The notes beneath the pieces were generated by a model that saw nothing but the letters and a program-made list of their open reading frames with translations, had not been told where the DNA came from and made no database searches. The position numbers and the translations under genes are program-made. A stretch of DNA of 64,000 nt, taken from positions 396,537 through 460,536 of the forward strand of contig CAYHBZ010000002.1 in assembly GCA_964355175.1 (NCBI GenBank), in the 5' to 3' direction. Numbering within the stretch: position 1 is the stretch's first letter; each line of letters starts with the position of its first letter. Below, one piece after another: positions 7,926-58,947 of the stretch. This DNA is from an uncultured Gammaproteobacteria bacterium. Lineage in GTDB: Bacteria > Patescibacteriota > Patescibacteriia > Magasanikbacterales > GWA2-37-8.

Positions 7926-7954
7926 TTGACAAAATTCGTAGATGGTGCTATACT
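7926..7954 (+). promoter_or_regulatory. sigma70-like promoter upstream of cassette A
   Basis: TTGACA (7926-7931), 17-nt spacer, TATACT (7949-7954). Confidence 0.5.
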
Positions 7955-8072
7955 AATCAGTTAAAATCAAATTTAACACCACGAATTATTGCGCCAGGTT
8001 TTGAGAGAGGCCCTAGCAATACATATAGACAGCTAGGTTAATTCTCTCTCAAAGGAGAATTTTTTACTTGTC

Positions 8073-8084
8073 GTTCTTTACAAT
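8073..8084 (+). promoter_or_regulatory. GTTCTTTACAAT box, copy 1 (followed by long leader hairpin, about 8093-8140)
   Basis: Exact 12-mer shared with 8941-8952 and 10397-10408. Confidence 0.5.
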
Positions 8085-8245
8085 AAATAGTGCTGAGCCC
8101 ACATGAGATCAAGAATTTCTTGATTTGATGCGGGTTCAGTGCACACAGCATTGACGTCCTCCGCGATTTTGCGGATTCGTTCAGTGCTGCGTACTGCAGC
8201 CAGGTCACGCGCCCACCTCAGTGGCGTTTCGTTCAGGAGTTTCCG

Positions 8246-8779
8246 ATGACCACCGCAAAGCACCCCGATCCGAACCATCCGGACCCCGGCACCACCGAAG
8301 AGCCCGTCGTCGACAAGGCGAAGGGCGACACGGTGGTGACCACGACGACCACCACGAGCGTTTCGTCGGCCGAGCCCATCAAGGCAAAGCCGGTGGCGAC
8401 CACCGACACCACGGCTGGCAAGACGGCGACCCAAGAGCCCAAGAAGGGTGGCTGGCCGCTCGGGACCATCGCCGGAGCTGTCGTGCTCGGTCTTCTGCTC
8501 CTCGGCGGCGTCTACTGGTTCGGCAGCCACAACAGCAGCACGCCGGTCGTCCCGCCCATCGCGGTCGCCGGTTGCTGTCTTCCCCAGGCCACCGTCGCGA
8601 GCCCCTGCTGCCCGCAACCGCCGGCTCCGCCCCCGCCGCCCGCCCCCGTCGTCAAGAAGAAGACGGTCGGCGAGTGCGTCGCCCAAGCCGTCGCCGGCAT
8701 GGAGGTCGCCCATGAGGACGACCGCCTCGCCGCGATGGACGGCGCCCGCGAAGAATGCGAGGAAGAATACGGCAAGTAG
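8246..8779 (+). CDS. GC-rich cassette A: bitopic membrane protein (Thr/Pro-rich N-terminal region, one TM, Cys/Pro-rich C-terminal region), no recognised family
   Basis: AGGAG 6 nt before ATG; strong G/C at codon position 3 in this frame only; TM WPLGTIAGAVVLGLLLLGGVYWF preceded by KKGG. Confidence 0.65.
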   Translation: MTTAKHPDPNHPDPGTTEEPVVDKAKGDTVVTTTTTTSVSSAEPIKAKPVATTDTTAGKTATQEPKKGGWPLGTIAGAVVLGLLLLGGVYWFGSHNSSTPVVPPIAVAGCCLPQATVASPCCPQPPAPPPPPAPVVKKKTVGECVAQAVAGMEVAHEDDRLAAMDGAREECEEEYGK

Positions 8780-8940
8780 CCGTTCCTGTCTCGCGTCGCT
8801 ATGTCGGTTCGGCGGGCCCTCAGCAATGAGGGTCCGCCGGCCGACTGGCTCGAATAGGACCTTTGTAGATTCCACTAGGGAAACTCCAAAGGTCCCCTAG
8901 ATTACATTCTTTTGGAAACAAGAGGATGTTGATAGGAAAA

Positions 8941-8952
8941 GTTCTTTACAAT
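8941..8952 (+). promoter_or_regulatory. GTTCTTTACAAT box, copy 2 (TTGATA 12 nt upstream)
   Basis: Exact 12-mer; about 35 nt upstream also similar to the copy 3 region. Confidence 0.5.
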
Positions 8953-9196
8953 TAAAACCAACAAAATTTTTTCCCACCTAAAAAGAATTATTATTTATAG
9001 TAATTCACTCTCGGTGGGAAAAAGTGTGGCGGAAATTCCGTTGCATAGCCTCCGACAGAGTCCCAATTGGGGCAAGTGCCCCGCGTGCGGGCTACTCTGT
9101 TACAGCGACCATTTCTGGGAAGCTGACCGAACGGCCCGCACGGCCGGTGTTCCAGTGTCTTGGTTTCGTGGGGTGAAAGTCCCCTGGAGTACAGCG

Positions 9197-10192
9197 ATGA
9201 ACAAGAATTCGAAGTTCCACAACCTCAGCATCTTGCTGACCCTGGCCATGGGGATCATGGTCGCTTCCAATTCCTACGCCGACGTGGCCACGGCTCGCGC
9301 TCGTGCCGAAGCCGCTCGTAGCCAGGCCAATCGGGCTGAGGTGAAAGCGGTCGACGCACAGACTGCGGCCAACGCGGCCAAGACCGGCGCCACCAACGCC
9401 CAGACCGCGGCCGATCAGGCCAAGGTCGAAGCGACCGCGGTGGGCACCAAGGCGGCCACTGACCTCGCTACGGCGATCCGCGCCCTCAACGGTGCGGTCG
9501 GCGGTGCGCGTGCGGCAGCGGTCAACGGTGATCGTCAGCTCGAGCGCAAGTTCAAGGCGGAGGCCGAGCGCCTTCAGACCGAGATCGAAGCGCTCAAGAA
9601 GCGGGCGCAGCACGAGTGTGCGGCGTTCGATGACAAGGGCAGCCAGGCGGCCTGTCTGACCATGCTCGAGAAGATCAACGCCAAGAACGGCGAAGTCACC
9701 ATGCACGGGCAAGACAAGGACACGGAGGTCCAGATCGCCAAGGTGGGACAGCAGTCCAAGGTGGTCCAGGAGATCTTCGACAACGCAAACCAAAACATGG
9801 ACGCCATCAAGGCGATCCAAATGGGTTGCGTCAACCAGGCCTTCGTCGACAAGGACGGCGTCAGCAAGAGCAAGTGGGAATGCCCCAAGGACATGAAGCG
9901 CGGCCCGCAGTTGCGCTACGAGCTCACGAACGTCTCGAAGTACGGCGACCACAGCGTCGTCATCGAGCCGGCCGAGAGCGGTGGCAATTCCAAGTGGGGC
10001 AAAGTGCTCGGCTTCGGCGCCATCGGTGGTGCTGCTGGCGGTGCTCTTGGCTGGGCCTTCTTCCCGAACCATGAAACCATGGAAGATGGCAGCGTCATGC
10101 ACCGGAATTACACCGGTCTCGTCGCTGGCACGGCCATCGGTTTCGTGGTCACGGCGGTGGCCACCCTGGTCATCGAAGAACTGACCGAATAG
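9197..10192 (+). CDS. GC-rich cassette B: secreted Ala-rich coiled-coil protein with C-terminal Gly-rich hydrophobic anchors, no recognised family
   Basis: GGAG 7 nt before ATG 9197; signal-peptide-like MNKNSKFHNLSILLTLAMGIMVASNSYA; GC3-biased frame; 9014-9196 treated as 5' leader. Confidence 0.65.
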   Translation: MNKNSKFHNLSILLTLAMGIMVASNSYADVATARARAEAARSQANRAEVKAVDAQTAANAAKTGATNAQTAADQAKVEATAVGTKAATDLATAIRALNGAVGGARAAAVNGDRQLERKFKAEAERLQTEIEALKKRAQHECAAFDDKGSQAACLTMLEKINAKNGEVTMHGQDKDTEVQIAKVGQQSKVVQEIFDNANQNMDAIKAIQMGCVNQAFVDKDGVSKSKWECPKDMKRGPQLRYELTNVSKYGDHSVVIEPAESGGNSKWGKVLGFGAIGGAAGGALGWAFFPNHETMEDGSVMHRNYTGLVAGTAIGFVVTAVATLVIEELTE

Positions 10193-10396
10193 GTCAACGG
10201 GTGAGGAGATCACCCCAAAGGATTGCAAGTGTGTTGGTTCACTTGCGCCAAATCTCGGTGTAGCTTATCTTGTCCCGCATTCGCGGTACGAGAGAAAGTT
10301 CACTAAACCGGTGGCGTGAACGATGGCTCAAATAGAGCTGTCGGTCACGCCCCAACAACTATCTTCTGTTTTTCAAACAGGGGATTGAGTTGGTAA

Positions 10397-10408
10397 GTTC
10401 TTTACAAT
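10397..10408 (+). promoter_or_regulatory. GTTCTTTACAAT box, copy 3 (TTGAGT 12 nt upstream; followed by hairpin, about 10426-10476)
   Basis: Exact 12-mer. Confidence 0.5.
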
Positions 10409-10641
10409 TTATTTCGTTAGATTTTCTCATACAGGACATAGGATATTTTTTGTATCTTGTGTCCTGTGTGAGAAGCCCCCAGTGGGGGTTGCCTGGGTGA
10501 AAACCCGACTAGGTCGGGGCGTTCGCTCCGGCAATTCCTCACTAGGGTGGTAAAAACGCCATCCGGACGGGTCAACTTCGACCTTTTCGGTAAAGTAGCA
10601 GTGTCTTTCTTTGTCCGCCCTTTAGTGGGCCGGAGGTTCTG

Positions 10642-12063
10642 ATGCGTAACCGGTTTCAATTGGTCGCGACTCTCGCGATGGCGGCTGCAGCCTGTGCAGC
10701 GTGTGGTGTCATCGAACATCCGGCCGATGCGGTCGTGATCGTGGTCGAAAAAGACGCCAGCAGCCAGGATGTCCAGCAGGACAACGGTCCGGCGCAGCAG
10801 CCCGAGATCGCGCAGACGGCCGACATCGCGCAGGACAACGGTCCGGCGACGAAGCCTGAGTGCGCGGTCGACAGCGACTGCGACGACAAGAACCCCTGCA
10901 CGACGGACGTCTGCGGCAGCAACGCCTGCGTCCACGTGGCCAACTCGGTCTCGTGCGACGACGGCAACGCCTGCACCAGCAACGACAAGTGCGGCTCCGA
11001 GAAGTGCTCGGGTGACCAGAAGGTCTGCGACGACAACAACCCCTGCACCGACGACGGCTGCGTCAGCGACGGCACCTGCCTGCACGGCGTCAACATCGTC
11101 AACTGCGACGACAGCGACGCCTGCACGGAAAAGGACCAGTGCGCCAACGGTAAGTGCGTCGGCCAGGTGAAGTCGTGCGACGACAAGGACAACTGCACGA
11201 CGGAATCGTGTGACAAGCTCAACGGGTGCTCGTCCACTCCGGTCGTCTGCCAGGACGCCGGGGATCCGTGCACGACGGAATCGTGCGACAAGGCAACGGG
11301 CAAGTGCTCGTCCACCACCGACTGCGACGACAAGGACGTCACCACGTTGGATGCCTGTGAACCGCTGCTCGAGACCGTGGGAATGGAGAAATGCCTCCAC
11401 ATCAAGATGCAGACCAAGTGCACCAAGAATGCGGATTGCGACGAGGACGGCGATCCGTGTTCGTTCGAGTTCTGTTCCCAGATCGGCTACTGCGCCAGCA
11501 AGTGGAAGTTGTGCGATGACGGAGACTACTGCACCCAGGACGAATGCGTCCCTCAGGCCGACTACGCCTGGTGCAAGAGCACTCAATACTCATGCGACGA
11601 CTACAACGCCTGCACGCTGGACTCCTGCACCAACGGCTACTGCCAACACAAGGGCAACGCCGCCATGTGCGACGACAAGGACTCCACCACCGCCGACTCG
11701 TGCAACCCTTCCCAGGGCTGCGTCAACACGCCGATTCCTCAACCCGGCGTGCCGAGCTCGACTCCTCCCTCGAATCCCTCGACCTGTGCGGCCTGGGGAG
11801 CGTGGATTTACTTGCCCACGGGCAACTGGCGCGGCGGCTATGACCTGACCGGTTCGTCTTCGCAAGAAACGGACCTGACAATCAGCGTCGACCAGTGGTA
11901 CGGCTTCAGCAACGCTCATTCTGTGTGGGCGTGGCTCAAGCCGTGGGGCAGTGCGGTACCGGCAAGCGTCAAGTGCACTGATCGGTGTGGTGTGGTCTTC
12001 CCCGCGAAGATCAGTGCCATGGCGGGTGGCTTCATCGCCATCTGCAGCACCGACCAGAAGTAG
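10642..12063 (+). CDS. GC-rich cassette C: Cys-rich repeat lipoprotein/secreted protein (tandem C-D-D-x-N-x-C-T-x-D-x-C units, Dicty_CTDC-like)
   Basis: GGAGG 5 nt before ATG; N-terminus MRNRFQLVATLAMAAAACAAC (signal/lipobox-like); 12 or more repeats of ~24 aa with spaced Cys; unrelated ~120-aa Trp-rich C-terminal domain. Confidence 0.75.
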   Translation: MRNRFQLVATLAMAAAACAACGVIEHPADAVVIVVEKDASSQDVQQDNGPAQQPEIAQTADIAQDNGPATKPECAVDSDCDDKNPCTTDVCGSNACVHVANSVSCDDGNACTSNDKCGSEKCSGDQKVCDDNNPCTDDGCVSDGTCLHGVNIVNCDDSDACTEKDQCANGKCVGQVKSCDDKDNCTTESCDKLNGCSSTPVVCQDAGDPCTTESCDKATGKCSSTTDCDDKDVTTLDACEPLLETVGMEKCLHIKMQTKCTKNADCDEDGDPCSFEFCSQIGYCASKWKLCDDGDYCTQDECVPQADYAWCKSTQYSCDDYNACTLDSCTNGYCQHKGNAAMCDDKDSTTADSCNPSQGCVNTPIPQPGVPSSTPPSNPSTCAAWGAWIYLPTGNWRGGYDLTGSSSQETDLTISVDQWYGFSNAHSVWAWLKPWGSAVPASVKCTDRCGVVFPAKISAMAGGFIAICSTDQK

Positions 12064-12330
12064 GCGGGGCTCAGGGGGTCTAACGGAAAAAGTTTTTGCT
12101 CTTTGGTAAAAGCAAACGGAAGGAGGTGTTCCTTTCGATAGGCCATTTCGGCCACCCATGCCAGAGGCGAGCGATCGCTAAAGGCTGGTCAACTAGGGGT
12201 GGTGTTGCTTCACCGCACACCACCCCGACCATCTCTAGCTCACAATATCTGTTGTGATCTGAAGATGGAAATAGCAATATGTCCATGACAAAAATACCAC
12301 CCTTCTCTCGGGCGGTTTTTTGTTTTTTAA

Positions 12331-18125: not shown

Positions 18126-18154
18126 TTGACAGGCGCTGGTTTTTTTGATTTAAT
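18126..18154 (+). promoter_or_regulatory. sigma70-like promoter of cassette D
   Basis: TTGACA, 17-nt spacer, TTTAAT; same hexamers as cassette E promoter. Confidence 0.55.
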
Positions 18155-18306
18155 AATAAGTCGTTTGTTCTTTATTTGGCAGGATAATTTTGGATTAAAA
18201 TTTTTAATTCAGAGTTATCGTGCCAACTTTCTCAATGCGTGTCGGCGAAATGCGTCGATATGTAAAGAGAGGTGCGAGAGCCTACATGGTAGGCAGGAGA
18301 GCAGGA

Positions 18307-19122
18307 ATGGCAGACAGCAGCCACAACGTTACTCAGGTCGGCATCACCGTCGGGCCGCCCAACGCCGATCTCGGCAGTGTGGTGGTTCGTCAGGAGGCGG
18401 CCAGGGCGGATCTCAATGAGCGGCGTACGCATCTCAGCTTGGTTGTCAAGCCCTCGGTCGATGATCTGGTCGCGCGGCTGAATGTCGAGCGGCAGGAAGT
18501 CGACCGCATCGGCGCGCTGGTCGATGCGGTAGAGCGCGAACAGGCGAAGAGCGTCAAGCACTTCGAATCGACGCTCGGCGGGCAGGCGCGGCTCTGGAAG
18601 AAGGGTTTCGACGCCCATGAGCGCTCGATCTTCTGGGTCAAGCTCCTCGGCGTCGTCGGCCTGGTCCTGGTCGGTATCGTCCTGGTCCTGAACCTGTCGT
18701 CCTCCTCGGACATCTCCACGGCCAAGTCGGAAGCCATCTCGGCCAAGACCACCGTGGCGGAGTTCAAGAAGGCCACCCAAGGCGAGGTCGTCAAGATCAA
18801 GAAGAGGCTCGATGCCAACAAGCTCGACATGGATCAGCTCAAGGATCAGATCAAGGTCGTCGGGCTCAAGGCTGACAAGAGCGTCGTCACTCGCATGGGC
18901 GAAGAGCTCAAAGAAGCCAACATCGAGCAGGACGGTCGGATCCAGGACATCGCCACCGCGATCATGGGCAAGGCCGACATAGCCGATCTCAAGAGCGTGA
19001 GGAGCGCAGTCGCGCAGGTTCGCCGGGCCAACGGCAAGGTGAACACGAAGATGACCAGGCTCGAAGCTCAGGTCCTGGAGCTCAAGGCCCAACTCCAGGC
19101 CCAACAGCCCAAGACCATGTAG
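18307..19122 (+). CDS. GC-rich cassette D: bitopic membrane protein with extracytoplasmic coiled coil, no recognised family
   Basis: AGGAGA 6 nt before ATG 18307; TM WVKLLGVVGLVLVGIVLVLNL; heptad-like K/D/L-rich C-terminal half; GC3-biased frame. Confidence 0.65.
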   Translation: MADSSHNVTQVGITVGPPNADLGSVVVRQEAARADLNERRTHLSLVVKPSVDDLVARLNVERQEVDRIGALVDAVEREQAKSVKHFESTLGGQARLWKKGFDAHERSIFWVKLLGVVGLVLVGIVLVLNLSSSSDISTAKSEAISAKTTVAEFKKATQGEVVKIKKRLDANKLDMDQLKDQIKVVGLKADKSVVTRMGEELKEANIEQDGRIQDIATAIMGKADIADLKSVRSAVAQVRRANGKVNTKMTRLEAQVLELKAQLQAQQPKTM

Positions 19123-19185
19123 TCCGTTCCCGATCTGTTCGGGCACTTGTAGTTTAGCCTTGATTTCTGAAGGCAAAAGCTCGGT

Positions 19186-19300
19186 GAGGACGCAAAATCC
19201 CCCCAAGGGTGTGTCGTTTACTCGACACTACCTGCTTAGTTCGCAAAAAATTGTTTGCTGAGCAGAATAAAAAATCCGCTATTATGGTGGATTTTTTAAT
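19186..19300 (+). repeat. 3' repeat R1, copy 1 (three hairpins, the last a terminator)
   Basis: About 80% identical to 20118-20238; bulged hairpin GGTGTGTCG-TTTACT-CGACACTACC; ends AAAAAATCCGC...GGTGGATTTTTT. Confidence 0.6.
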
Positions 19301-19330
19301 CTAAAATATGCTGTTTTTAGGTCAGTAGTA

Positions 19331-19359
19331 TTGACAAAGTAGGATTTTTATGTTTTAAT
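19331..19359 (+). promoter_or_regulatory. sigma70-like promoter of cassette E
   Basis: TTGACA, 17-nt spacer, TTTAAT. Confidence 0.55.
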
Positions 19360-19504
19360 AGTTCATTAGATTGTTCTTTTTAATCAATTCGCGCGACAAT
19401 TATAAATTAAAATTTTTCAATTTATAATCGTCGTGCGAATTTCAGTTTATCAATGACGGCCAGTCGGAGGTTCCGATTGGTTCAGCTCTTTCTGCGAGGT
19501 GAGC

Positions 19505-20074
19505 ATGGTTGATTTCAATCCCCCGGATCCAGTGGATCCAGAGAAGAAAAAGAAGCCTTCGTCGGCTGTGGAGACAGACCACAATTGGGAAGCCTGGGCC
19601 AACGATAATTCGGTCGATGACGGCAGTCATCCTCTGCCTGGTGAAGCCGAATACGTCGGACGGTCCGACCTTCCCATGACACGGGCACAGAAAGAGCGCA
19701 TCGCCGCGATCGTAGTCGGTACGGCCTTCCTGGTGTTGGTTTTCTTTGTCATCAATTTCGCTATCGGCAACAAGCTCAAGCATTCTGAAGCGGCCTCGTC
19801 CAACGAGGCTGGCAAGCAGAGCGCTCAGGCAAGTGCCGAAGTAGAATTGAAGGCAGAAGAAGCCGCCTCAGAGCAGGATCATACGGTCTCGCTGCCGGAT
19901 CACGCTTCGCAGGAAGATGATCTGGACGATGCTCGCGCGACCATCAAGGTCGTCGGTTTGGAGAAACGGCGCGTTCGAGATCCAGAGATGGAGCGGATCG
20001 CCGCAACCATCAAGATCGTGCCACTGCGTGTCAGTCCTGTCGCGGTACCGCTTCCAGCGGCCGCTACTCAGTAG
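19505..20074 (+). CDS. GC-rich cassette E: bitopic membrane protein with acidic C-terminal region, no recognised family
   Basis: GAGGTG just before ATG 19505; TM IAAIVVGTAFLVLVFFVINFAIG preceded by RAQKER; GC3-biased frame. Confidence 0.6.
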   Translation: MVDFNPPDPVDPEKKKKPSSAVETDHNWEAWANDNSVDDGSHPLPGEAEYVGRSDLPMTRAQKERIAAIVVGTAFLVLVFFVINFAIGNKLKHSEAASSNEAGKQSAQASAEVELKAEEAASEQDHTVSLPDHASQEDDLDDARATIKVVGLEKRRVRDPEMERIAATIKIVPLRVSPVAVPLPAAATQ

Positions 20075-20117
20075 TAGTCAAACATACTTTGAACCTAAAA
20101 GTGTGTGAGACTCCTGA

Positions 20118-20238
20118 ACAGGACAAAAAATCCCCAAAAGGGTGTGCCGACTGAAAAGTCGGCACTACCTGCTTAATCAATAAAACATTGTTTATTGAGC
20201 AGAATAAAAAATTCACTTTGAAAGGTGGATTTTTTAAT
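20118..20238 (+). repeat. 3' repeat R1, copy 2
   Basis: Same three-hairpin layout as 19186-19300; stem 1 differs by paired substitutions (GGTGTGCCGAC / GTCGGCACTACC). Confidence 0.6.
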
Positions 20239-24840: not shown

Positions 24841-25008
24841 ATTATTAGACGGTATTTTTTTACATTGAACAAGCGAGGAAATAATTTGTGAGCCGTGAGG
24901 CGTGGCTAGCCCTGCTGTTTGAGGAGCCGAGCGACGAGTTCAGGGCTAGAGCCGAGTGGGTTGCAAATTATCCGAGCGGTTCACTGTAAAAAAATACCGT
25001 CTAATAAT
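24841..25008. repeat. palindromic GC-cored intergenic element E1
   Basis: Perfect 24-bp terminal inverted repeat (24841-24864 / 24985-25008); ~100-nt core homologous to 35968-36066. Confidence 0.65.
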
Positions 25009-33793: not shown

Positions 33794-34000
33794 ATCGGAT
33801 ATTCTATCAGAAATAAGGGTATTTTACAAGGAATAAAAAATACCCTACCAAAGGTAAAGTATTTTTATAATAATGCCTATTTTACCGAGATCTCCTGTTA
33901 AATTTTTACCAATATATTTGATAAAGATTTAGCATTGGGAGATCTTGGTGGACCGCGACCTCCCAACGCCAGACTTGCGTCGGTCTGTCGGTAGGCGAGT

Positions 34001-34354
34001 CTACCAGGCGCCCATGGGCTGAGACGTAGGCTTGGCGACTTCCAGTTCCTGGGCCGTGGCCAGACGCGCTCCGGCACAGGTGCCCAGCACCCACTGGATC
34101 ACGAGCAGGTCACCGACCTTGGTCTCCTTGGGGACGAACAACGGGAAGCCGCTGCGGTCCTCGTCGGCTCCGCGCTTGTGTTCGTTCTCTGCGAAGTAGC
34201 GATGGCCGCTCTTGTCGCTACGTCCGAGCACGTAGAAGATCGGAGTCTCCGGATGCTGGTCGGCGTTGTTGCTGTCGCGACGGATGAGTTTGCCTTGGGG
34301 TACAAAGATACCGACACCGGTTTCGAGCCGGAAGACACCGTGAAAGATAAGCAT
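34001..34354 (-). CDS. GC-rich cassette F: 117-aa soluble protein, no recognised family
   Basis: AAGGA 6 nt before ATG; GC3-biased frame on minus strand; own promoter and leader hairpin. Confidence 0.6.
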   Translation of the reverse strand: MLIFHGVFRLETGVGIFVPQGKLIRRDSNNADQHPETPIFYVLGRSDKSGHRYFAENEHKRGADEDRSGFPLFVPKETKVGDLLVIQWVLGTCAGARLATAQELEVAKPTSQPMGAW

Positions 34355-34401
34355 TGATTGTCCTTGAGTTGCATCAACCGAAACGCTCGGCTGATATGAT
34401 G

Positions 34402-35927: not shown

Positions 35928-36104
35928 AAATAAATATTTCCCCTGAACGAGCCGCTGAAAATCCGAGCAAATAATTTGTGAGCCGACGAGGCGTCTCTGG
36001 CCGTGCTGTTTGAGGAGCCGCGCGACGAGTTCACGGCCAGAGTCTCGACGGGTTGCAAATTATGCGAAGATTTTCACAGGCGAGAGAAGGGGAAATATTT
36101 ATTT
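35928..36104. repeat. palindromic GC-cored intergenic element E2
   Basis: 16-bp perfect outer inverted repeat (35928-35943 / 36089-36104); core homologous to E1 with paired substitutions. Confidence 0.65.
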
Positions 36105-43541: not shown

Positions 43542-43616
43542 GGCCCGTTCGTCTATCGGCTAGGACATGGCCTTCTCAAGGCTAGAAGAGGGGTTCGACT
43601 CCCCTACGGGCTACCA
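43542..43616 (+). tRNA. tRNA-Glu (anticodon CUC), CCA encoded
   Basis: Hand-folded cloverleaf: acceptor GGCCCGT/ACGGGCT, anticodon loop TTCTCAA, T-arm AGGGG-TTCGACT-CCCCT, 3' ACCA. Confidence 0.85.
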
Positions 43617-53889: not shown

Positions 53890-55311
53890 ATGCCAAAAGC
53901 CAAAGTAAAAACTTTTCCGCTGAAATCGCTAGGCACTATGCCGATGCCAGAGCCGCTTGAGGTGACCATGCCTATCATGACCATCACCTCGCCGACTGAG
54001 CGTATTTTGCCGCCGGAAAATTTTACTACGGCTGGTGAAGTGGTGAATTTTCGTGATAGTTGGAGAATTTTCAAAATTATCAGCGAGTTTATTGACGGCT
54101 ATGATTTTCTCAAACAATTCAAACGCGAAGTTACTATTTTAGGTTCGGCGCGTTTGCCAAAAAATGACCACTATTACAAAGAAGCACAGGAGCTCGGCTA
54201 TATGTTGGCCAAGCATGGCTTCACTACTATTACTGGTGGTGGTCCGGGCATCATGGAAGCCGCCAACCGTGGCGCGTTTGAAGGCGGCGGTGAAACTGTG
54301 GGTATTAATATCCAATTGCCATTTGAACAGCGCATCAATCCTTATGTGAAACATTCGGTCGGTTTTTATTATTTCTTTACTCGCAAGGTGATGCTCACTT
54401 CGCCGGCCAATGCCTTTGTGTTTTTCCCGGGCGGTTTTGGTACGCTTGATGAATTTTTTGAAGTAGTGGATTATATGGAGCTTGGCTATATGCCGAAGTC
54501 GCCGATAGTTTTGGTCGGTCGTACTTTTTGGGATCCGGTAATTAAATTTTTAAGAGAAAATTCTAGCGGTTTAGTGCACTGTGTATCGGAAGAAATTATC
54601 GATAGCTGGAAAGTAGCCCATACGGCGCAGGAAGCTTTTGAATTTATCAAGGATTCAGAAGACAGACCAAATGATTTTGATACTACCCCTGATCAAATCC
54701 AATCTAAAGGCGGGCCAGATTGGCGCGTATTTCGTATCATGGCCGAATTGGTAGATGGTTTTGAATTTTTGGCCACGATGAAAAATGAAGTCACTGTTTT
54801 TGGCACCAAAAGTATTTTACCAGGATCTTCGTACTATCAAGCCGCTCAGGCGACCGGAGAATTATTGGCAAAAAACGGATTCTCGGTTATTACCGGCGGG
54901 GGAGCCGGCACGATGGAAGCGGCCAACCGTGGCGCGTTTGAAGCGGGTGGTGAAAGTGTCGGTATGACTATTGTGCGTGAGAATGCTATTCAGAATAATA
55001 ATTATCTCACGAAATCAATTGGCTTTTCTTTTCCATTTGTGCGCAAATTAATTATTACCGCCCCTTCCAAAGCCTTTATATTTTTCCCGGGCGGTTTTGG
55101 TACGCTTCATCAATTATTTGAACTCCTTACTTTGCAAGAAACCGGGAAGATGCCTTTGACTCCGGTAATTTTGTTTGGCCGAGATTTTTGGCATCCAATG
55201 ATTGAATACTTCCATATGCTCTATGGTAACTTTAAGACCATCAGCATGGTAGATCAGAAATTGGTAAATGTTGTAGACAGGCCGGAAGAAATTTTGAGAT
55301 TTATCAAATAA
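53890..55311 (+). CDS. tandem-duplicated LOG/TIGR00730-family (Rossmann-fold nucleotide-binding) protein
   Basis: Two copies of GGGPG.MEAANRGA ... PGGFGTL(D/H)E within one 473-aa ORF. Confidence 0.75.
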   Translation: MPKAKVKTFPLKSLGTMPMPEPLEVTMPIMTITSPTERILPPENFTTAGEVVNFRDSWRIFKIISEFIDGYDFLKQFKREVTILGSARLPKNDHYYKEAQELGYMLAKHGFTTITGGGPGIMEAANRGAFEGGGETVGINIQLPFEQRINPYVKHSVGFYYFFTRKVMLTSPANAFVFFPGGFGTLDEFFEVVDYMELGYMPKSPIVLVGRTFWDPVIKFLRENSSGLVHCVSEEIIDSWKVAHTAQEAFEFIKDSEDRPNDFDTTPDQIQSKGGPDWRVFRIMAELVDGFEFLATMKNEVTVFGTKSILPGSSYYQAAQATGELLAKNGFSVITGGGAGTMEAANRGAFEAGGESVGMTIVRENAIQNNNYLTKSIGFSFPFVRKLIITAPSKAFIFFPGGFGTLHQLFELLTLQETGKMPLTPVILFGRDFWHPMIEYFHMLYGNFKTISMVDQKLVNVVDRPEEILRFIK

Positions 55312-56121: not shown

Positions 56122-56206
56122 GGAGAGGTCGCATAGTGGCCGAGTGCGCCGCCTTGGAAAGGCGGTATACCGCAAGGTATCGAGGGTTCAAATCCCTCTC
56201 TCTCCG
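56122..56206 (+). tRNA. tRNA-Ser (anticodon GGA), long variable arm, CCA not encoded
   Basis: Hand-folded: acceptor GGAGAGG/TCTCTCC, anticodon stem CCGCC/GGCGG with loop TTGGAAA, 16-nt variable arm, T-arm GAGGG-TTCAAAT-CCCTC. Confidence 0.85.
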
Positions 56207-56244
56207 CTGGGTCACGCTTATATGAGCAAAGGGTTCATATTCCA

Positions 56245-56276
56245 AAAACATCTCGACTAAGTCGGGATGTTTTTTT
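56245..56276 (+). terminator. intrinsic terminator after tRNA-Ser
   Basis: AAAACATCTCGACTAAGTCGGGATGTTTTTTT. Confidence 0.65.
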
Positions 56277-56405
56277 ACCAGATAAAAAAATAATTCTTCA
56301 TAAAAACACACCGTCGGGTGTGTTTTTATATTGACAAAAATGTATTTTTAGTATAGGCTCTAGCCTGATCGTTCTCGCGGATTTCTCGCGCTACAGGAGG
56401 ACATC

Positions 56406-56774
56406 ATGGCAGATTCTCTGCCGTTCCAAGAAGATCTGCGTAAGCCATTCCACATCTCAGTCTGCGACCGGATCGCTCTCTGCCTCACGGCAATGAGCAT
56501 CTCCGGTGGAAGGGAGATCCCGCTCGGCATCCAGGAGGTGACCAGAGACCTGGATCTCTTGGACAAGACCAAGGTCCCGGCCAAGGAACTGCCCAGTGTG
56601 ACAAAGGCCCTCTACGGCCTGCGGGTGATGTACGGCCCTCTCATGCCGACGGTTTCTCAGCGCCTGACCCAATCGATCGACCTCTTGGTCGTGTATCAAG
56701 AGGAGCTGGCCGAGGATGGCAAGCTGGATCGCGACCTCGTGTGGTTGCCGCCTGTCGTCGACCCGGTAGCCTAG
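56406..56774 (+). CDS. GC-rich cassette G: 122-aa soluble protein, no recognised family
   Basis: AGGAGG 5 nt before ATG; GC3-biased frame; TTGACA at 56331. Confidence 0.6.
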   Translation: MADSLPFQEDLRKPFHISVCDRIALCLTAMSISGGREIPLGIQEVTRDLDLLDKTKVPAKELPSVTKALYGLRVMYGPLMPTVSQRLTQSIDLLVVYQEELAEDGKLDRDLVWLPPVVDPVA

Positions 56775-56900
56775 CTGGTCTGTAGATTTTCACCCGGTCT
56801 TCGTCTATGTCCGGGTTGAGAGGTGTTCATACACCACTCCGTCCCGACTTAGTCGAGACGTGAATCACCGCAAGGTAGTGACGAGAACATCAGACATTCA

Positions 56901-56970
56901 GACTGTTCGCGCTCACTTAAGATTATAACTTGATTATAGTTTTAAGTGACGAACAGTCTTTTTGTTTTTT
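56901..56970 (+). terminator. long hairpin terminator of cassette G
   Basis: AGACTGTTCG..TCACTTAA-(AT-rich apex)-TTAAGTGACGAACAGTCT followed by TTTTTGTTTTTT. Confidence 0.6.
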
Positions 56971-57041
56971 CTAAAGGATATTTTATAGATACGGATGGCA
57001 ATACTTTTGGTTTGCATCAGCCGGATGAAAAGGCGGCATAA

Positions 57042-57070
57042 TTGACTTTTTTGAATTTAATCGCTAAAAT
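57042..57070 (+). promoter_or_regulatory. sigma70-like promoter of cassette H
   Basis: TTGACT, 17-nt spacer, TAAAAT. Confidence 0.55.
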
Positions 57071-57105
57071 GGTGTTCAGCCATTTTGGCTTTTTGGAGTT
57101 TCGCC

Positions 57106-57327
57106 ATGAGTGTAAAATATCGTCCGGGAACCGGCAGGGAGCCGCGCATCTTCCATGAGAGTATGGGCTTGCCCAGCCGGACGGTCGTTCAGATCGACTG
57201 GTGGACCTGTCCGAACCTGATCGTGAAGGATGAGCAGTTCGGAAATCGCGAACTCTGTGACTTTCAGAACCCGTCTTGGGAACACAAGTGCCAGGGTTGC
57301 GGTGCCGATCGTCCCGATAAGTCCTAG
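57106..57327 (+). CDS. GC-rich cassette H: 73-aa protein with RanBP2-like zinc-ribbon (WWTC...C-x3-N-x6-C-x2-C-GA-x-RP)
   Basis: TGGAG 7 nt before ATG 57106; GC3-biased frame; C-terminal motif shared with cassette I. Confidence 0.6.
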   Translation: MSVKYRPGTGREPRIFHESMGLPSRTVVQIDWWTCPNLIVKDEQFGNRELCDFQNPSWEHKCQGCGADRPDKS

Positions 57328-57335
57328 GAGGACTC

Positions 57336-57362
57336 ATGCGTATCCGCGCACCCCCGCCTTAA
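57336..57362 (+). CDS. putative arrest-type mini-ORF MRIRAPPP*
   Basis: Stop of cassette H embedded in TAGGAGGA; ATG 3 nt after the SD; 8 codons ending RAPPP-stop; homologous to 58764..58793. Confidence 0.4.
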   Translation: MRIRAPPP

Positions 57363-57387
57363 AAAAGGCACAGGGAAGTAGCGGAAT

Positions 57388-57453
57388 AAAAACCGCCGCC
57401 AACCTGTTTTGTTTCCAAATACAATTGGAGATGGGATAGGCTGGCGGTTTTTT
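57388..57453 (+). terminator. long hairpin terminator of cassette H
   Basis: AAAACCGCCGCCAACCTGTTTTGTTTCCAA...TTGGAGATGGGATAGGCTGGCGGTTTTTT. Confidence 0.6.
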
Positions 57454-57455
57454 GT

Positions 57456-57484
57456 TTGACTTCCAGAGAGGGATTTGATAGTTT
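57456..57484 (+). promoter_or_regulatory. sigma70-like promoter of cassette I
   Basis: TTGACT, 17-nt spacer, TAGTTT; -35 abuts the terminator T-run. Confidence 0.45.
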
Positions 57485-57523
57485 TGATGGGCGCAAATTT
57501 CGCGCCAACCAGTGAGGAACACA

Positions 57524-57925
57524 ATGACTTGTGGTCAACGTCGCAAACTGCGTCTTGATATGATCGTGGTCAAGGGCTGGAACGGTCGTCGCCTCTCCAA
57601 GGGGTGTCGGAAGTACATACGCCGTCACCTGCCTCTGGAATGGCAGGCGATCGAGGATCGTGCTCAACAGGAGCGTGAGCTGGTGCGGCAGATCGAGCTG
57701 CACAAGGCGGCTGCTCGCAACAAGCAGACGGCTACGCGGCCGAGCTTCTCCGCGCCGTCGTTCGCTACGGCGAAGCCTGCACCGGTGCCGGTCAAGCCTC
57801 CGCGGGATCCATGGTGGACCTGCAAGGCCGAAACCAAGGGAGGTTATTTCTCCGGCGCCTGCAACGAGCTGAACTACAGTAATACCTCCTGCACCTACTG
57901 TGGTGCGGCTCGCCCGGCAGCGTGA
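57524..57925 (+). CDS. GC-rich cassette I: 133-aa basic protein with C-terminal RanBP2-like zinc-ribbon
   Basis: GAGGA 5 nt before ATG 57524; C-terminus PWWTC..(11)..C-NEL-N-YSNTS-C-TY-C-GAARP, paralogous to cassette H tail. Confidence 0.6.
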   Translation: MTCGQRRKLRLDMIVVKGWNGRRLSKGCRKYIRRHLPLEWQAIEDRAQQERELVRQIELHKAAARNKQTATRPSFSAPSFATAKPAPVPVKPPRDPWWTCKAETKGGYFSGACNELNYSNTSCTYCGAARPAA

Positions 57926-57931
57926 GGAATC

Positions 57932-57958
57932 ATGCACTACTCCACCGGACCGCCTTGA
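57932..57958 (+). CDS. putative arrest-type mini-ORF MHYSTGPP*
   Basis: Stop of cassette I embedded in TGAGGA; ATG 3 nt after; 8 codons ending GPP-stop. Confidence 0.35.
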   Translation: MHYSTGPP

Positions 57959-57988
57959 AATATAGGTGGGCAGGGCGGAGGAAGATTA

Positions 57989-58053
57989 CATCGACCACCA
58001 AACTGCTTTGTATGAAAATTTTTTATATAGAGCAGAGTGGTCGATGTTTTTTT
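57989..58053 (+). terminator. long hairpin terminator of cassette I
   Basis: CATCGACCACCAAACTGCTTTGTAT...ATATAGAGCAGAGTGGTCGATGTTTTTTT. Confidence 0.6.
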
Positions 58054-58064
58054 ATTTGAAATAC

Positions 58065-58093
58065 TTGACAAAAGCTCTATTTTTGTCTATAAT
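58065..58093 (+). promoter_or_regulatory. consensus sigma70 promoter of cassette J
   Basis: TTGACA, 17-nt spacer, TATAAT. Confidence 0.6.
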
Positions 58094-58197
58094 CATTAGT
58101 TAATTAATGGTCATCATATGATGCACGCCCAAAGAGGTTGGTCGTGTTTCATACCGTGATCCGTTAAGGAACATGGGCAACTCGCGTAGGGGGAAAT

Positions 58198-58746
58198 ATG
58201 TTGGAAATCATTTTGGAACCGAAGCTCAAGAACAAGTTCCTGACCGCTCGGGTCAAGGCGCATTGCGGGGTCATGACATGGTCGTTTTGCACCGCTGAAG
58301 GCGGTGTGGCGATCATCGAAGCGTTCGTCCGCGAACGCGTCTGGGGCTGGCAGGAAACTCGTCCGCTCTGCCGCCAGATGGAAGCGACTTTCCCCAAGGA
58401 TGCCAGCAAGTTGGCCGCCTGGCTCAACATGTTCGAGTCCTCCTCGTGCGATGTGGCCGTTCAGCCCATCCATCTCGTGGATCAAGCCGGCGCTTCCCTC
58501 GCTATCAGTGGCAACCAGCTGCATGATGGTGTGGTCGCTACGATCGGTACGGCCGTCTGCATGCTGGATCACTACCTCGTTCGCGGGGTGTTGCGCAACG
58601 GCGACTGCATCTCCGCGACGCAGCAGATGCTCCAGGCTGGCATGACCGACGTCATTTCGGAAAAGGCGTTTCGTGCTTTGACCGGTGGCATTCCGCTGTC
58701 CGGTTTCAACGAGTACGACTACCGTCGGATGGTCGGTCAACTCTAG
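58198..58746 (+). CDS. GC-rich cassette J: 182-aa soluble Cys-containing protein, no recognised family
   Basis: GGGGG 4 nt before ATG; clear GC3-biased frame. Confidence 0.65.
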   Translation: MLEIILEPKLKNKFLTARVKAHCGVMTWSFCTAEGGVAIIEAFVRERVWGWQETRPLCRQMEATFPKDASKLAAWLNMFESSSCDVAVQPIHLVDQAGASLAISGNQLHDGVVATIGTAVCMLDHYLVRGVLRNGDCISATQQMLQAGMTDVISEKAFRALTGGIPLSGFNEYDYRRMVGQL

Positions 58747-58763
58747 TCAAAGAGGAGGAGAAC

Positions 58764-58793
58764 ATGGTTTCTATCCGTGCTCCGCCCCGATAA
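58764..58793 (+). CDS. putative arrest-type mini-ORF MVSIRAPPR*
   Basis: AGAGGAGGAG then 3 nt then ATG, 17 nt after cassette J stop; 9 codons containing IRAPP. Confidence 0.4.
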   Translation: MVSIRAPPR

Positions 58794-58824
58794 AGGGCGA
58801 TAGGAAGGAGTACGGAGACAAAGA

Positions 58825-58888
58825 AAGCCGCGCACCAACCTATTTTGTTTCTAAATTTTTGGAAATAGAATAGGGTGCGTGGCTTTTG
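58825..58888 (+). terminator. long hairpin terminator of cassette J
   Basis: AAAGCCGCGCACCAACCTATTTTGTTTCTAAAT...GGAAATAGAATAGGGTGCGTGGCTTTTGTTTT; homologous to 57388-57453. Confidence 0.6.
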
Positions 58889-58947
58889 TTTTCCCCTATA
58901 CAAAACCTCATTTTTTGTGTAGGATAAGGGTTGATAACTTAATCAAT

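Follow-up and report, generated by a model that had tools for sequence, protein, structure and literature searches.

Units D and E of a Magasanikbacteria locus form a probably duplicated, hypervariable membrane-protein unit between two new structured RNA modules

The 64-kb stretch of DNA analyzed in this study (referred to below as the window) belongs to a 463,850-bp contig (ENA ERZ4201063, NODE_6), and its plus strand carries two adjacent transcription units, D and E, between positions 18126 and 20238. D and E are a clade-specific, duplicated, hypervariable membrane-protein unit that lies between two new structured RNA modules, namely, a 5' leader made of a short box and a long hairpin (P1) and a 3' element of ~120 nt (R1). 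We consider it probable that D and E are diverged tandem copies of one clade-specific transcription unit with RNA-structured ends and a hypervariable, GC-rich membrane-protein gene, and the likely function in our model is the post-transcriptional control of fast-evolving surface proteins. The host organism is a bacterium of the Magasanikbacteria group within the candidate phyla radiation (CPR; Patescibacteria); the locus is also present in GTDB genomes labeled Candidatus Magasanikbacteria, and the D-E region was assembled identically in several other samples. Both RNA motifs are supported by covariation and are new to Rfam, and to our knowledge, almost no regulatory RNA is known from the CPR.

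The order of parts is the same within each unit, i.e., promoter, box, hairpin, coding sequence (CDS), R1, and terminator. An initial annotation made from the sequence of the window described D and E as twin cassettes that share every noncoding part and encode dissimilar proteins, and local alignment bears out this contrast. Measured against 200 dinucleotide shuffles, the 5' and 3' noncoding parts of D and E align with z-scores of 11.1 and 34.4, respectively, whereas the two CDSs have a z-score of 1.8 and give no alignment. The plus-strand open reading frames (ORFs) are the real ones and are GC-rich, as annotated: the in-frame GC content at third codon positions (GC3) is 0.81 in D and 0.62 in E, compared with 0.34 to 0.39 in the host genes, of which the overall GC content is ~0.40.

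The R1 element occupies positions 19179 to 19300 in D (covariance-model match at 19179 to 19297, 107 bits). In E, it is contained, together with the terminator, in the 3' untranslated region (UTR) at 20075 to 20238 (match at 20112 to 20235, 128 bits), which folds with a z-score of -8.3; the repeat annotated in both units is thus recovered by the model. R1 has the layout GAGGAC-A(n)-UCCCC-A(n)-GGGU, followed by a variable stem, H3, which is closed by GGGU/ACC, an AU-rich hairpin, H4, and a terminator hairpin, H5, with a U-run. Structures specified by us were scored by counting pairs in alignments of 11 R1 copies and 9 box-plus-hairpin copies from various genomes and units. In the R1 alignment, 94.4% of the cells are paired, compared with 38 to 51% in slid controls, and both partners have changed in eight pairs (20 cells), a level that 0 of 500 shuffles attained. 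The stem of H3 takes the forms GTGTCG/CGACAC, GCCGCGA/TCGCGGC, GTGCCGAC/GTCGGCAC, GTACCGAT/ATCGGTAC, and GTCCCGAC/GTCGGGAC in different copies, and G-U is the commonest pair at three positions of H4. H5 (AAAAAATCCGC...GTGGATTTTTT) folds in both D and E and is 96% paired across the 11 copies. This hairpin contains GC, precedes a U-run, and stands where the unit ends, as expected of an intrinsic terminator.

The window contains only two copies of R1; the next best match (24.6 bits) is a terminator. When the window was searched against Rfam, only two tRNAs passed the gathering threshold and neither R1 nor P1 matched any family; between 18050 and 20300, the best subthreshold matches reached at most 25 bits against thresholds of 40 to 211. 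R1 and P1 are conserved far above the synonymous sites of neighboring genes, and the proximal 3' UTR of D (19123 to 19178), which contains two small hairpins (CCCGATCTGTTCGGG and GCCTTGATTTCTGAAGGC), is conserved in orthologues from the stop codon on. A hammerhead-like reading of CTCGATGAGGAC in R1 was dropped, as it had no support from Rfam. A 5'-3' kissing interaction between H3 and the leader hairpin P2 (described below) was also dropped on inspection by eye, H3 varying between orthologues and P2 showing no covariation with it. Two resemblances were seen at locus 1, a group of three GC-rich genes (A, B, and C) elsewhere in the window: GGGTGAGGAGATCACCCCAAAGGATTG at 10196 to 10225, in the 3' UTR of B, is similar to the 5' part of R1 (GGTGAGGACGCAAAATCCCCCCAAGGGTG), and the stop-proximal TAGCCGTTCC after A resembles TAGTCCGTTCC after D. 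There are thus hints that the UTRs of locus 1 may be distantly related to those of D and E.

P1 is found at 18177 to 18226 in D, where it comprises ~23 bp with an AT-rich apex and several G-U pairs, and at 19386 to 19441 in E, where the two arms (19386 to 19412 and 19415 to 19441) are 89% complementary. The long imperfect leader hairpins of the initial annotation therefore exist in both units, with scores of 68.8 bits (D) and 83.9 bits (E) in a covariance model of the box plus hairpin (R2). P1 of E is a sequence homologue of P1 in D and in D' (a paralogue of D present in related genomes), and all three have in common the pattern GCGCGAyrATTAT...TATAATCGTCGTGC. The models of R1 and R2 score ~30 bits higher on the sense strand, as illustrated by P1 of D, for which R2 gives 68.8 bits on the sense strand and 39.4 bits on the antisense strand. 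In the P1 alignment, 93.7% of the cells are paired, compared with 32 to 45% in slid controls, and 10 of the 23 pairs have compensatory changes. P1 and R1 are both conserved as sense-strand RNA structures through compensatory change. The G-U pairs in P1 and R1 would be A-C mismatches on the opposite strand, which points to RNA rather than DNA structure; with compensatory pairs and strand specificity in both, R1 and P1 have the marks of structured cis-acting RNAs.

The promoters are located where the initial annotation had placed them. Unit D (promoter at 18126 to 18154) has a -35 hexamer, TTGACA, at 18126 to 18131, a 17-nt spacer with TG at 18146 to 18147, and a -10 hexamer, TTTAAT, at 18149 to 18154, and unit E (19331 to 19359) has TTGACA at 19331 to 19336, a 17-nt spacer with TGn, and TTTAAT at 19354 to 19359. 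The two promoters are 72% identical over 32 nt, and their -10 hexamers do not have the usual A at position 2. The extended -10 motif TGn is present in D and E (TGATTTAAT and TGTTTTAAT) and in all 15 related units, and TTGACA-17(TGn)-T(A/T)nnAT was found upstream of 15 of the 15 D, E, and D' units examined. A simple promoter and terminator scanner with fixed rules missed the promoters and terminators of both D and E.

The box, an exact TTGTTCTTT in both units (18165 to 18173 in D and 19371 to 19379 in E), lies 12 to 13 nt past the -10 hexamer, in agreement with the initial annotation, and its core, GTTCTTT, is invariant in the nine aligned leaders. The 9-mer as such is not rare, with five exact copies in the 64 kb and 46 copies with one mismatch (35 expected); the significance of the box lies in its position and its conservation across genomes, not in the 9-mer itself. 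A consensus promoter is present 5 to 37 nt upstream of the box in all 15 box-bearing D, E, and D' units, and the box is therefore predicted to be transcribed, in D at approximately +5 to +13 of the transcript, where it would serve as the anti-Shine-Dalgarno strand.

The leader of D (18160 to 18309) folds with -65.1 kcal/mol (z = -9.1) on the sense strand, compared with -28.6 kcal/mol (z = -3.1) on the antisense strand, and the leader of E folds with z = -7.0. The part of the D leader past P1 (18227 to 18306) contains the hairpins P2 (CTTTCTC...GAGAG around a GC-rich stem) and P3 (GCCTAC...GTAGGC) and the Shine-Dalgarno sequence (SD), AGGAG, at 18295 to 18299. In minimum free energy (MFE) folds, the UUCUUU of the box pairs with this SD in the D leaders of five genomes and the D' leaders of three, and the resulting helix closes a junction that holds P1, P2, and P3; the three-way junction of the D leader is also predicted in four orthologues. 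A box variant in the D unit of one related locus (L139D) has a U-to-C change that turns the predicted U-G pair with the SD into a C-G pair. The corresponding part of the E leader (19442 to 19504) contains a hairpin, CCAGTCGGAGGTTCCGATTGG, and a local hairpin with CUCUUUCU in which the SD, GAGGUGA (19497 to 19503), is enclosed instead. This arrangement is conserved in four E orthologues according to individual folds and alifold.

In the mechanism that we propose, the UTRs would control the mRNAs of D and E post-transcriptionally. In the full-length leader of D, the box would pair with the SD and close the three-way junction, which would keep translation off by default, whereas the SD of E would be sequestered by the local CUCUUUCU hairpin. 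Melting, a trans-acting factor, or cleavage within the long P1 duplex could bring about release, and the 23-bp duplex directly past the box would be a plausible RNase III-type substrate, the cleavage of which would detach the box. R1 would terminate the transcript and probably stabilize or protect its 3' end; its exposed and invariant UCCCC and GAGGAC motifs may be binding sites for a factor, or R1 may itself function as a small RNA derived from the 3' end. The encoded proteins are probably exposed on the cell surface and subject to diversifying selection from host or phage contact, which we propose as the reason for a hypervariable CDS between constant ends, and the repeated, conserved ends would provide homology for duplication, loss, and allele exchange.

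SD-sequestering leaders include the fourU and ROSE RNA thermometers and RNase III-activated leaders such as that of E. coli adhE. The D leader resembles them in that the predicted pairing of its pyrimidine-rich UUCUUU with AGGAG would mask the ribosome-binding site, and the long, near-perfect duplex beside the box resembles RNase III-activated leaders in that cleavage there would free the SD. On the other hand, the pairing in D is long-range, across a three-way junction of ~130 nt, and not a short local hairpin as in RNA thermometers; the D and E leaders match no Rfam family, and a response to temperature, ligand, or nuclease is only proposed. A further difference is that the box is also present 5' of locus 1 genes with no nearby promoter.

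The CDS of D (18307 to 19122; 271 amino acids [aa], starting with MADSS) begins at ATG 18307 behind AGGAG, and the frame of an upstream extension is broken by an indel in orthologues. Its overall GC content is 0.61, and its product has one transmembrane (TM) segment (residues 113 to 131) and a helical C-terminal tail ending in PKTM. The CDS of E (19505 to 20074; 189 aa) begins at ATG 19505, and its product has one TM segment (residues 69 to 87) and an acidic tail with two IK(V/I)V(G/P)L motifs that ends in PLPAAATQ; the exact E product is encoded on the 463,850-bp contig and in five other assemblies. The single-pass character in the initial annotation holds, there being exactly one hydrophobic segment in each protein, whereas its assignment of the N termini to the inside finds weak support in 4 versus 2 and 3 versus 2 basic residues. 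The D family is an orphan with nine cluster representatives among 1.84 billion proteins, and E has four relatives. Neither protein has a significant match in Pfam, NCBIfam, PHROG, or PDB, the best subthreshold matches being SAG1386/EF1546 for E (18.9 bits against a cutoff of 80) and a PDB chain for D (E-value = 0.085). An AlphaFold2 model of D from a five-sequence alignment is all-helical and unreliable, with a predicted local distance difference test (pLDDT) score of 44.6.

D' is a clear paralogue of D, with 27% identity over 171 aa (E-value = 7e-11). When the D-family and E-family profiles were compared with hhalign, they matched with a probability of 79.6% (E-value = 1.5e-5) over 19 columns ending in IKVVGL, a motif that lies 55 to 60 residues past the TM segment in both D and E. 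Pairwise BLASTP of D and E is colinear from the TM segment to this motif (E-value = 0.012). The absence of any obvious similarity between the ORFs, as first described, therefore needs some qualification. Since the motif is colinear, D' is a paralogue of D, and D, E, and D' have homologous promoters, P1 hairpins, and R1 elements, the two units look like ancient tandem duplicates of a whole transcription unit, the coding part of which has diverged extremely; this is the outcome that the initial annotation had named as refuting its own reading. The R1 copies cluster by orthology, with that of D in the window grouping with D of locus L007 and that of E grouping with E of loci L006 and L008, from which it follows that the duplication predates these genomes. 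Occasional conversion between the copies is visible in L080, of which the two R1 copies have identical 3' halves.

Searching with the covariance model gave 29 R1 copies in 18 loci, and the gene upstream of R1 is D, D', or E in all loci with an upstream ORF examined. More copies of the shared noncoding frame, which the initial annotation had suggested looking for, thus exist, but at one syntenic site and with D, D', and E only. The site lies between a GHL15-family gene and a convergent gene for a PALP enzyme, and the unit is specific to a clade of Candidatus Magasanikbacteria. The order GT1-GHL15-[units]-PALP(reverse)-LysW is kept in every locus with sufficient flank and persists where the GHL15 and PALP proteins are only 45% and 60 to 65% identical, respectively, to those of the window. 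The site holds D alone in L065, D' alone in L134 and L135, D' and D in L027, L080, L089, and L136, and D and E in the window, L006, L007/L008, and L052, with the D and E orthologues keeping their positions across genomes. A specific R1 pattern had no match in IMG/VR, and the same pattern matched nine stretches in JGI metagenomes; no viral homologue of D was found. Scanning genome contigs with a 16-base pattern gave mostly chance matches and recovered at least five Magasanikbacteria loci. L080 (CAZXEV010000017.1) is a locus of the Magasanikbacteria type (D', D, R1, PALP, and LysW) with a GC content of 0.42 on a record labeled as an uncultured Gammaproteobacteria metagenome-assembled genome, and it is probably a misbinned contig.

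The coding parts of D and E evolve ~5 to 25 times faster than the flanking genes. Flanking proteins are 84 to 88% identical between the window and L006 or L007 and 92 to 96% identical between L006 and L007, whereas the D and E proteins are 37 to 52% identical in the same comparisons. At the 4-fold sites of identical residues, 26 to 37% differ between L006 and L007 in flanking genes, compared with 63 to 64% in D and E. The D-E intergenic region is 89% identical between the window and L007 and 73% identical between L006 and L007, which contradicts the genome tree, where the latter two are sisters. Window D is closest to L006 and window E is closest to L007, and the phylogenies of D and E are incongruent with those of the flanking genes. 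The cargo diversity between strains that the initial annotation had proposed to compare is evident in L138 and L006 (L138:3370-4137 versus L006:7038-7820; strains from different sequencing runs), which are ~100% identical over 3.2 kb save for ~215 nt inside D with 53 to 65% identity. The segment starts immediately 3' of the IKVVGLK codons, reaches the KMTKLE codons, and lies in the ectodomain-coding part of D. The L138/L006 difference is a segmental allele replacement by homologous recombination, and the coding parts of D and E are recombination mosaics. No donor of the segment was present among the loci compared, and no silent donor cassette for D or E was found in the 64-kb window.

The GC-richness of these genes is persistent. 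The GC content at 4-fold sites is 0.55 to 0.90, with 0.01 to 0.16 A, in 24 D, D', and E genes, compared with a GC content of 0.28 to 0.57 in flanking genes, and in each of the 14 loci checked, the D, D', and E genes at the syntenic site have a high GC content, with flanking proteins 45 to 65% identical. This property persists despite saturated synonymous sites and deep genome divergence. The high GC content could stem from GC-biased gene conversion at a hot spot of recombination or from selection on the mRNA, and the locus provides a test case for distinguishing the two, for which GC-biased gene conversion in bacteria (PMC4450053) serves as a comparison. A literature search on GC-rich hypervariable genes in CPR found nothing relevant, PMC6851277 dealing with a different repeat locus. 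Only tentatively do we extend the interpretation to a clade that keeps a dedicated class of GC-rich hypervariable surface-protein genes (D, D', and E and perhaps those of loci 1 and 3), in which the UTR modules would be both RNA regulators and fixed homology arms for allele or segment exchange and the GC footprint would reflect strong GC-biased conversion or a selected property; this broader scheme is rather doubtful at present. Selection might favor an A-poor mRNA that resists nucleases or a codon-gated translation in an organism whose tRNA set is minimal. With either origin of the GC content, if true, a reduced symbiont would have a new means of antigen-like variation.

Several points weigh against reading D and E as diverged tandem copies under RNA-level control. 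The start sites, the processing of the transcript, and the box-SD pairing are model predictions. Box and SD are both nearly invariant, so that the aligned leaders offer no compensatory change in the box-SD helix, and the pairing does not appear in the MFE folds of E and of L134a. The box often stands directly 5' of a -10-like TAMAAT, with GTTCTTTACAAT in locus 1, and could be a promoter or operator element acting at the DNA level, which is a live alternative. The paralogy of D and E draws on the 19-column motif and the shared noncoding parts, and an unrelated ORF could conceivably have been recruited into a duplicated frame. Surface exposure and orientation are weakly indicated by the one TM segment and the slight charge bias of each protein, and the model leaves the persistent GC-richness of the coding parts unexplained.

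The main rival is the one put forward in the initial annotation, i.e., a cassette-exchange or expression platform similar to an integron or shufflon, in which a site-specific recombinase would act on R1 and/or the box plus hairpin and insert unrelated GC-rich ORFs into a constant AT-rich frame. The unit is indeed modular, its number and type vary at one site ({D}, {D'}, {D',D}, and {D,E}), coding segments are swapped between strains, the imperfect hairpin is kept in structure above sequence in a manner recalling attC, and weak R2 matches occur 5' of the unrelated locus 1 genes A and C. What fails is the general platform for unrelated cargo. No integrase, transposase, or other recombinase domain was detected in a Pfam scan of nine neighboring genes or in the precomputed Pfam matches of called genes in the 20 to 22 kb around the locus. 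No attC cores (RYYYAAC/GTTRRRY) were seen on reading R1 (19179 to 19300 and 20112 to 20238) and P1 (18177 to 18226 and 19386 to 19441); the only GTT-containing candidates there, GTTTACT, GTTCGCA, and GTTTGCT, do not match GTTRRRY. R1 is confined to the 3' side of D, D', and E at one syntenic site, with no copy in viral contigs, and orthologues hold their positions. The many G-U pairs and the strand asymmetry of folding indicate RNA, and the L138 swap lies inside the CDS, bounded by conserved coding motifs and not by R1 or P1. Such a platform is largely refuted by these data, and we regard it as very unlikely; a conserved frame with different cargo can stem from tandem duplication and diversifying selection with no cassette machinery. 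The attC reading of the hairpins was dropped in view of the absent core sites and the RNA-type pairing. Nor does D look like the target of a diversity-generating retroelement: no reverse transcriptase domain was found in the neighborhood and no D-like repeat was found within or near the gene, and unlike in the target of such an element, the L138/L006 differences are not restricted to A positions.

A recent acquisition of the genes from a GC-rich donor, landing behind host promoters so that the shared noncoding parts would be ordinary host signals, would explain the GC3 of 0.62 to 0.81 against 0.34 to 0.39 and would agree with the other GC-rich islands in the window, one of which adjoins a tRNA gene. 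It is highly improbable given that the genes are GC-rich in 14 of 14 syntenic loci whose flanks have diverged to 45 to 65% identity with saturated 4-fold sites, that the nine D-family representatives among 1.84 billion include no GC-rich donor in the databases and no viral homologue was found, and that the shared noncoding parts are specific structured elements, not generic signals. The idea that R1 is mainly a trans-acting small RNA (sRNA) from the 3' end of the D and E mRNAs, with the seed AAAAUCCCCAAAA directed against G-rich ribosome-binding sites and conserved for its targets and not for the control of D and E, deserves more weight. R1 is the most conserved part of the locus, and its invariant, A-flanked UCCCC upstream of three hairpins and a terminator has a layout that recalls 3'-UTR-derived and C-rich-seed sRNAs such as RsaE/RoxS. 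It is nevertheless unlikely as the main role: the promoter, processing, and targets of such an sRNA would be hypothetical, the CCCC stretch is able to pair with the adjacent GGG, and R1 is always tied physically to one gene family. As for chance similarity in AT-rich sequence, which the initial annotation had listed as a possible refutation, TTGACA and T-rich terminators are generic signals and the box as a mere 9-mer is not rare, but z-scores of 11 and 34 against dinucleotide shuffles, covariance scores of 107 to 128 bits against at most 24.6 bits elsewhere in the window, and conservation with covariation across 18 loci reduce its probability to practically nil, and it can be considered refuted.

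D and E resemble integron cassettes in being ORF-sized modules of variable number at one site, with a structure-conserved imperfect hairpin and cargo of a base composition unlike that of the host. They differ in that each unit has its own promoter and terminator, integron cassettes being usually promoterless, in that the cargo always belongs to one protein superfamily at one syntenic locus, and in that the hairpins, unlike attC, are of the sense-strand RNA type with many G-U pairs. R1 shares with the RsaE/RoxS-type sRNAs an unpaired UCCCC between A runs, followed by hairpins and an intrinsic terminator, and differs in having no Rfam match and being tied to one gene family; an sRNA role is a candidate only. 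Among hypervariable mosaic loci, the mosaic antigen genes of pathogens offer a parallel. For host-dependent microbes, an account of diversified surface proteins of Nanoarchaeota symbionts in PMC6142677 offers a further comparison. As in mosaic surface-protein loci, the coding divergence of D and E is far above that of the genome while the flanks are conserved, the alleles appear older than the species split, and segmental replacement is seen between near-identical strains; unlike in such loci, the 64-kb window yielded no silent donor copies, the genes have a strongly elevated GC content although the genome is AT-rich, and both UTRs are covariation-supported RNA structures. The clade-restricted, fast-recombining membrane-protein locus is a natural candidate for the surface at which these uncultured episymbionts meet hosts or phages.

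The neighborhood of D and E encodes Wzy, glycosyltransferases, the GHL15-family protein, the PALP enzyme, LysW, NUDIX, and Mur ligases. Locus 1 (7927 to 12330) contains the GC-rich genes A (8246 to 8779), B (9197 to 10192), and C (10642 to 12063), with GC3 values of 0.82 to 0.87. GTTCTTTACAAT and a long hairpin are found 5' of A, B, and C (at 8072, 8945, and 10397, respectively), and a consensus promoter was found for A only (at 7927). For A and C, where GTTCTTTACAAT is present, there is no consensus promoter within 95 nt upstream, and the weaker R2 matches 5' of these genes, which are unrelated to D and E, score 19.4 bits (A) and 31.9 bits (C). The product of C has a lipoprotein-like signal and Dicty_CTDC Cys repeats, and that of B has weak PHROG tail-fiber matches. 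Orthologues of locus 1 in L007 are syntenic and likewise GC-rich.

Locus 3 (56122 to 58900) comprises four GC-rich single-gene units (56407 to 56775, 57107 to 57328, 57525 to 57926, and 58199 to 58747) directly past a tRNA-Ser(GGA) gene (56122 to 56207), each with its own consensus promoter. The last three units have a common 3' motif followed by a long terminator, and the products of 57107 and 57525 end in zinc-ribbon-like W-x-C...C-x-x-C-G-x-x-R-P motifs; locus 3 is possibly an island that has integrated at the tRNA gene. On the minus strand, positions 33950 to 34355 hold an isolated ORF of high GC content (~0.59) with AT-rich flanks and a terminator-like hairpin. A tRNA-Glu(CUC) gene at 43542 to 43616, the product of which reads GAG only, represents an extra tRNA for G-ending codons in a small AT-rich genome with many GC-rich genes. 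A tandem duplication of ~660 bp with 71 to 72% identity was observed at 54172 to 55122 (54172 to 54462 versus 54832 to 55122). A GC-rich, internally palindromic repeat of ~120 nt is present in two copies 11 kb apart (24868 to 24990 and 35958 to 36075), with a 55-nt core that is 87% identical and shared flanks of AAATAATTTGTGAGCC on one side and GGGTTGCAAATTAT on the other; it has no Rfam match at the gathering threshold and may represent a small RNA or else a miniature mobile element.

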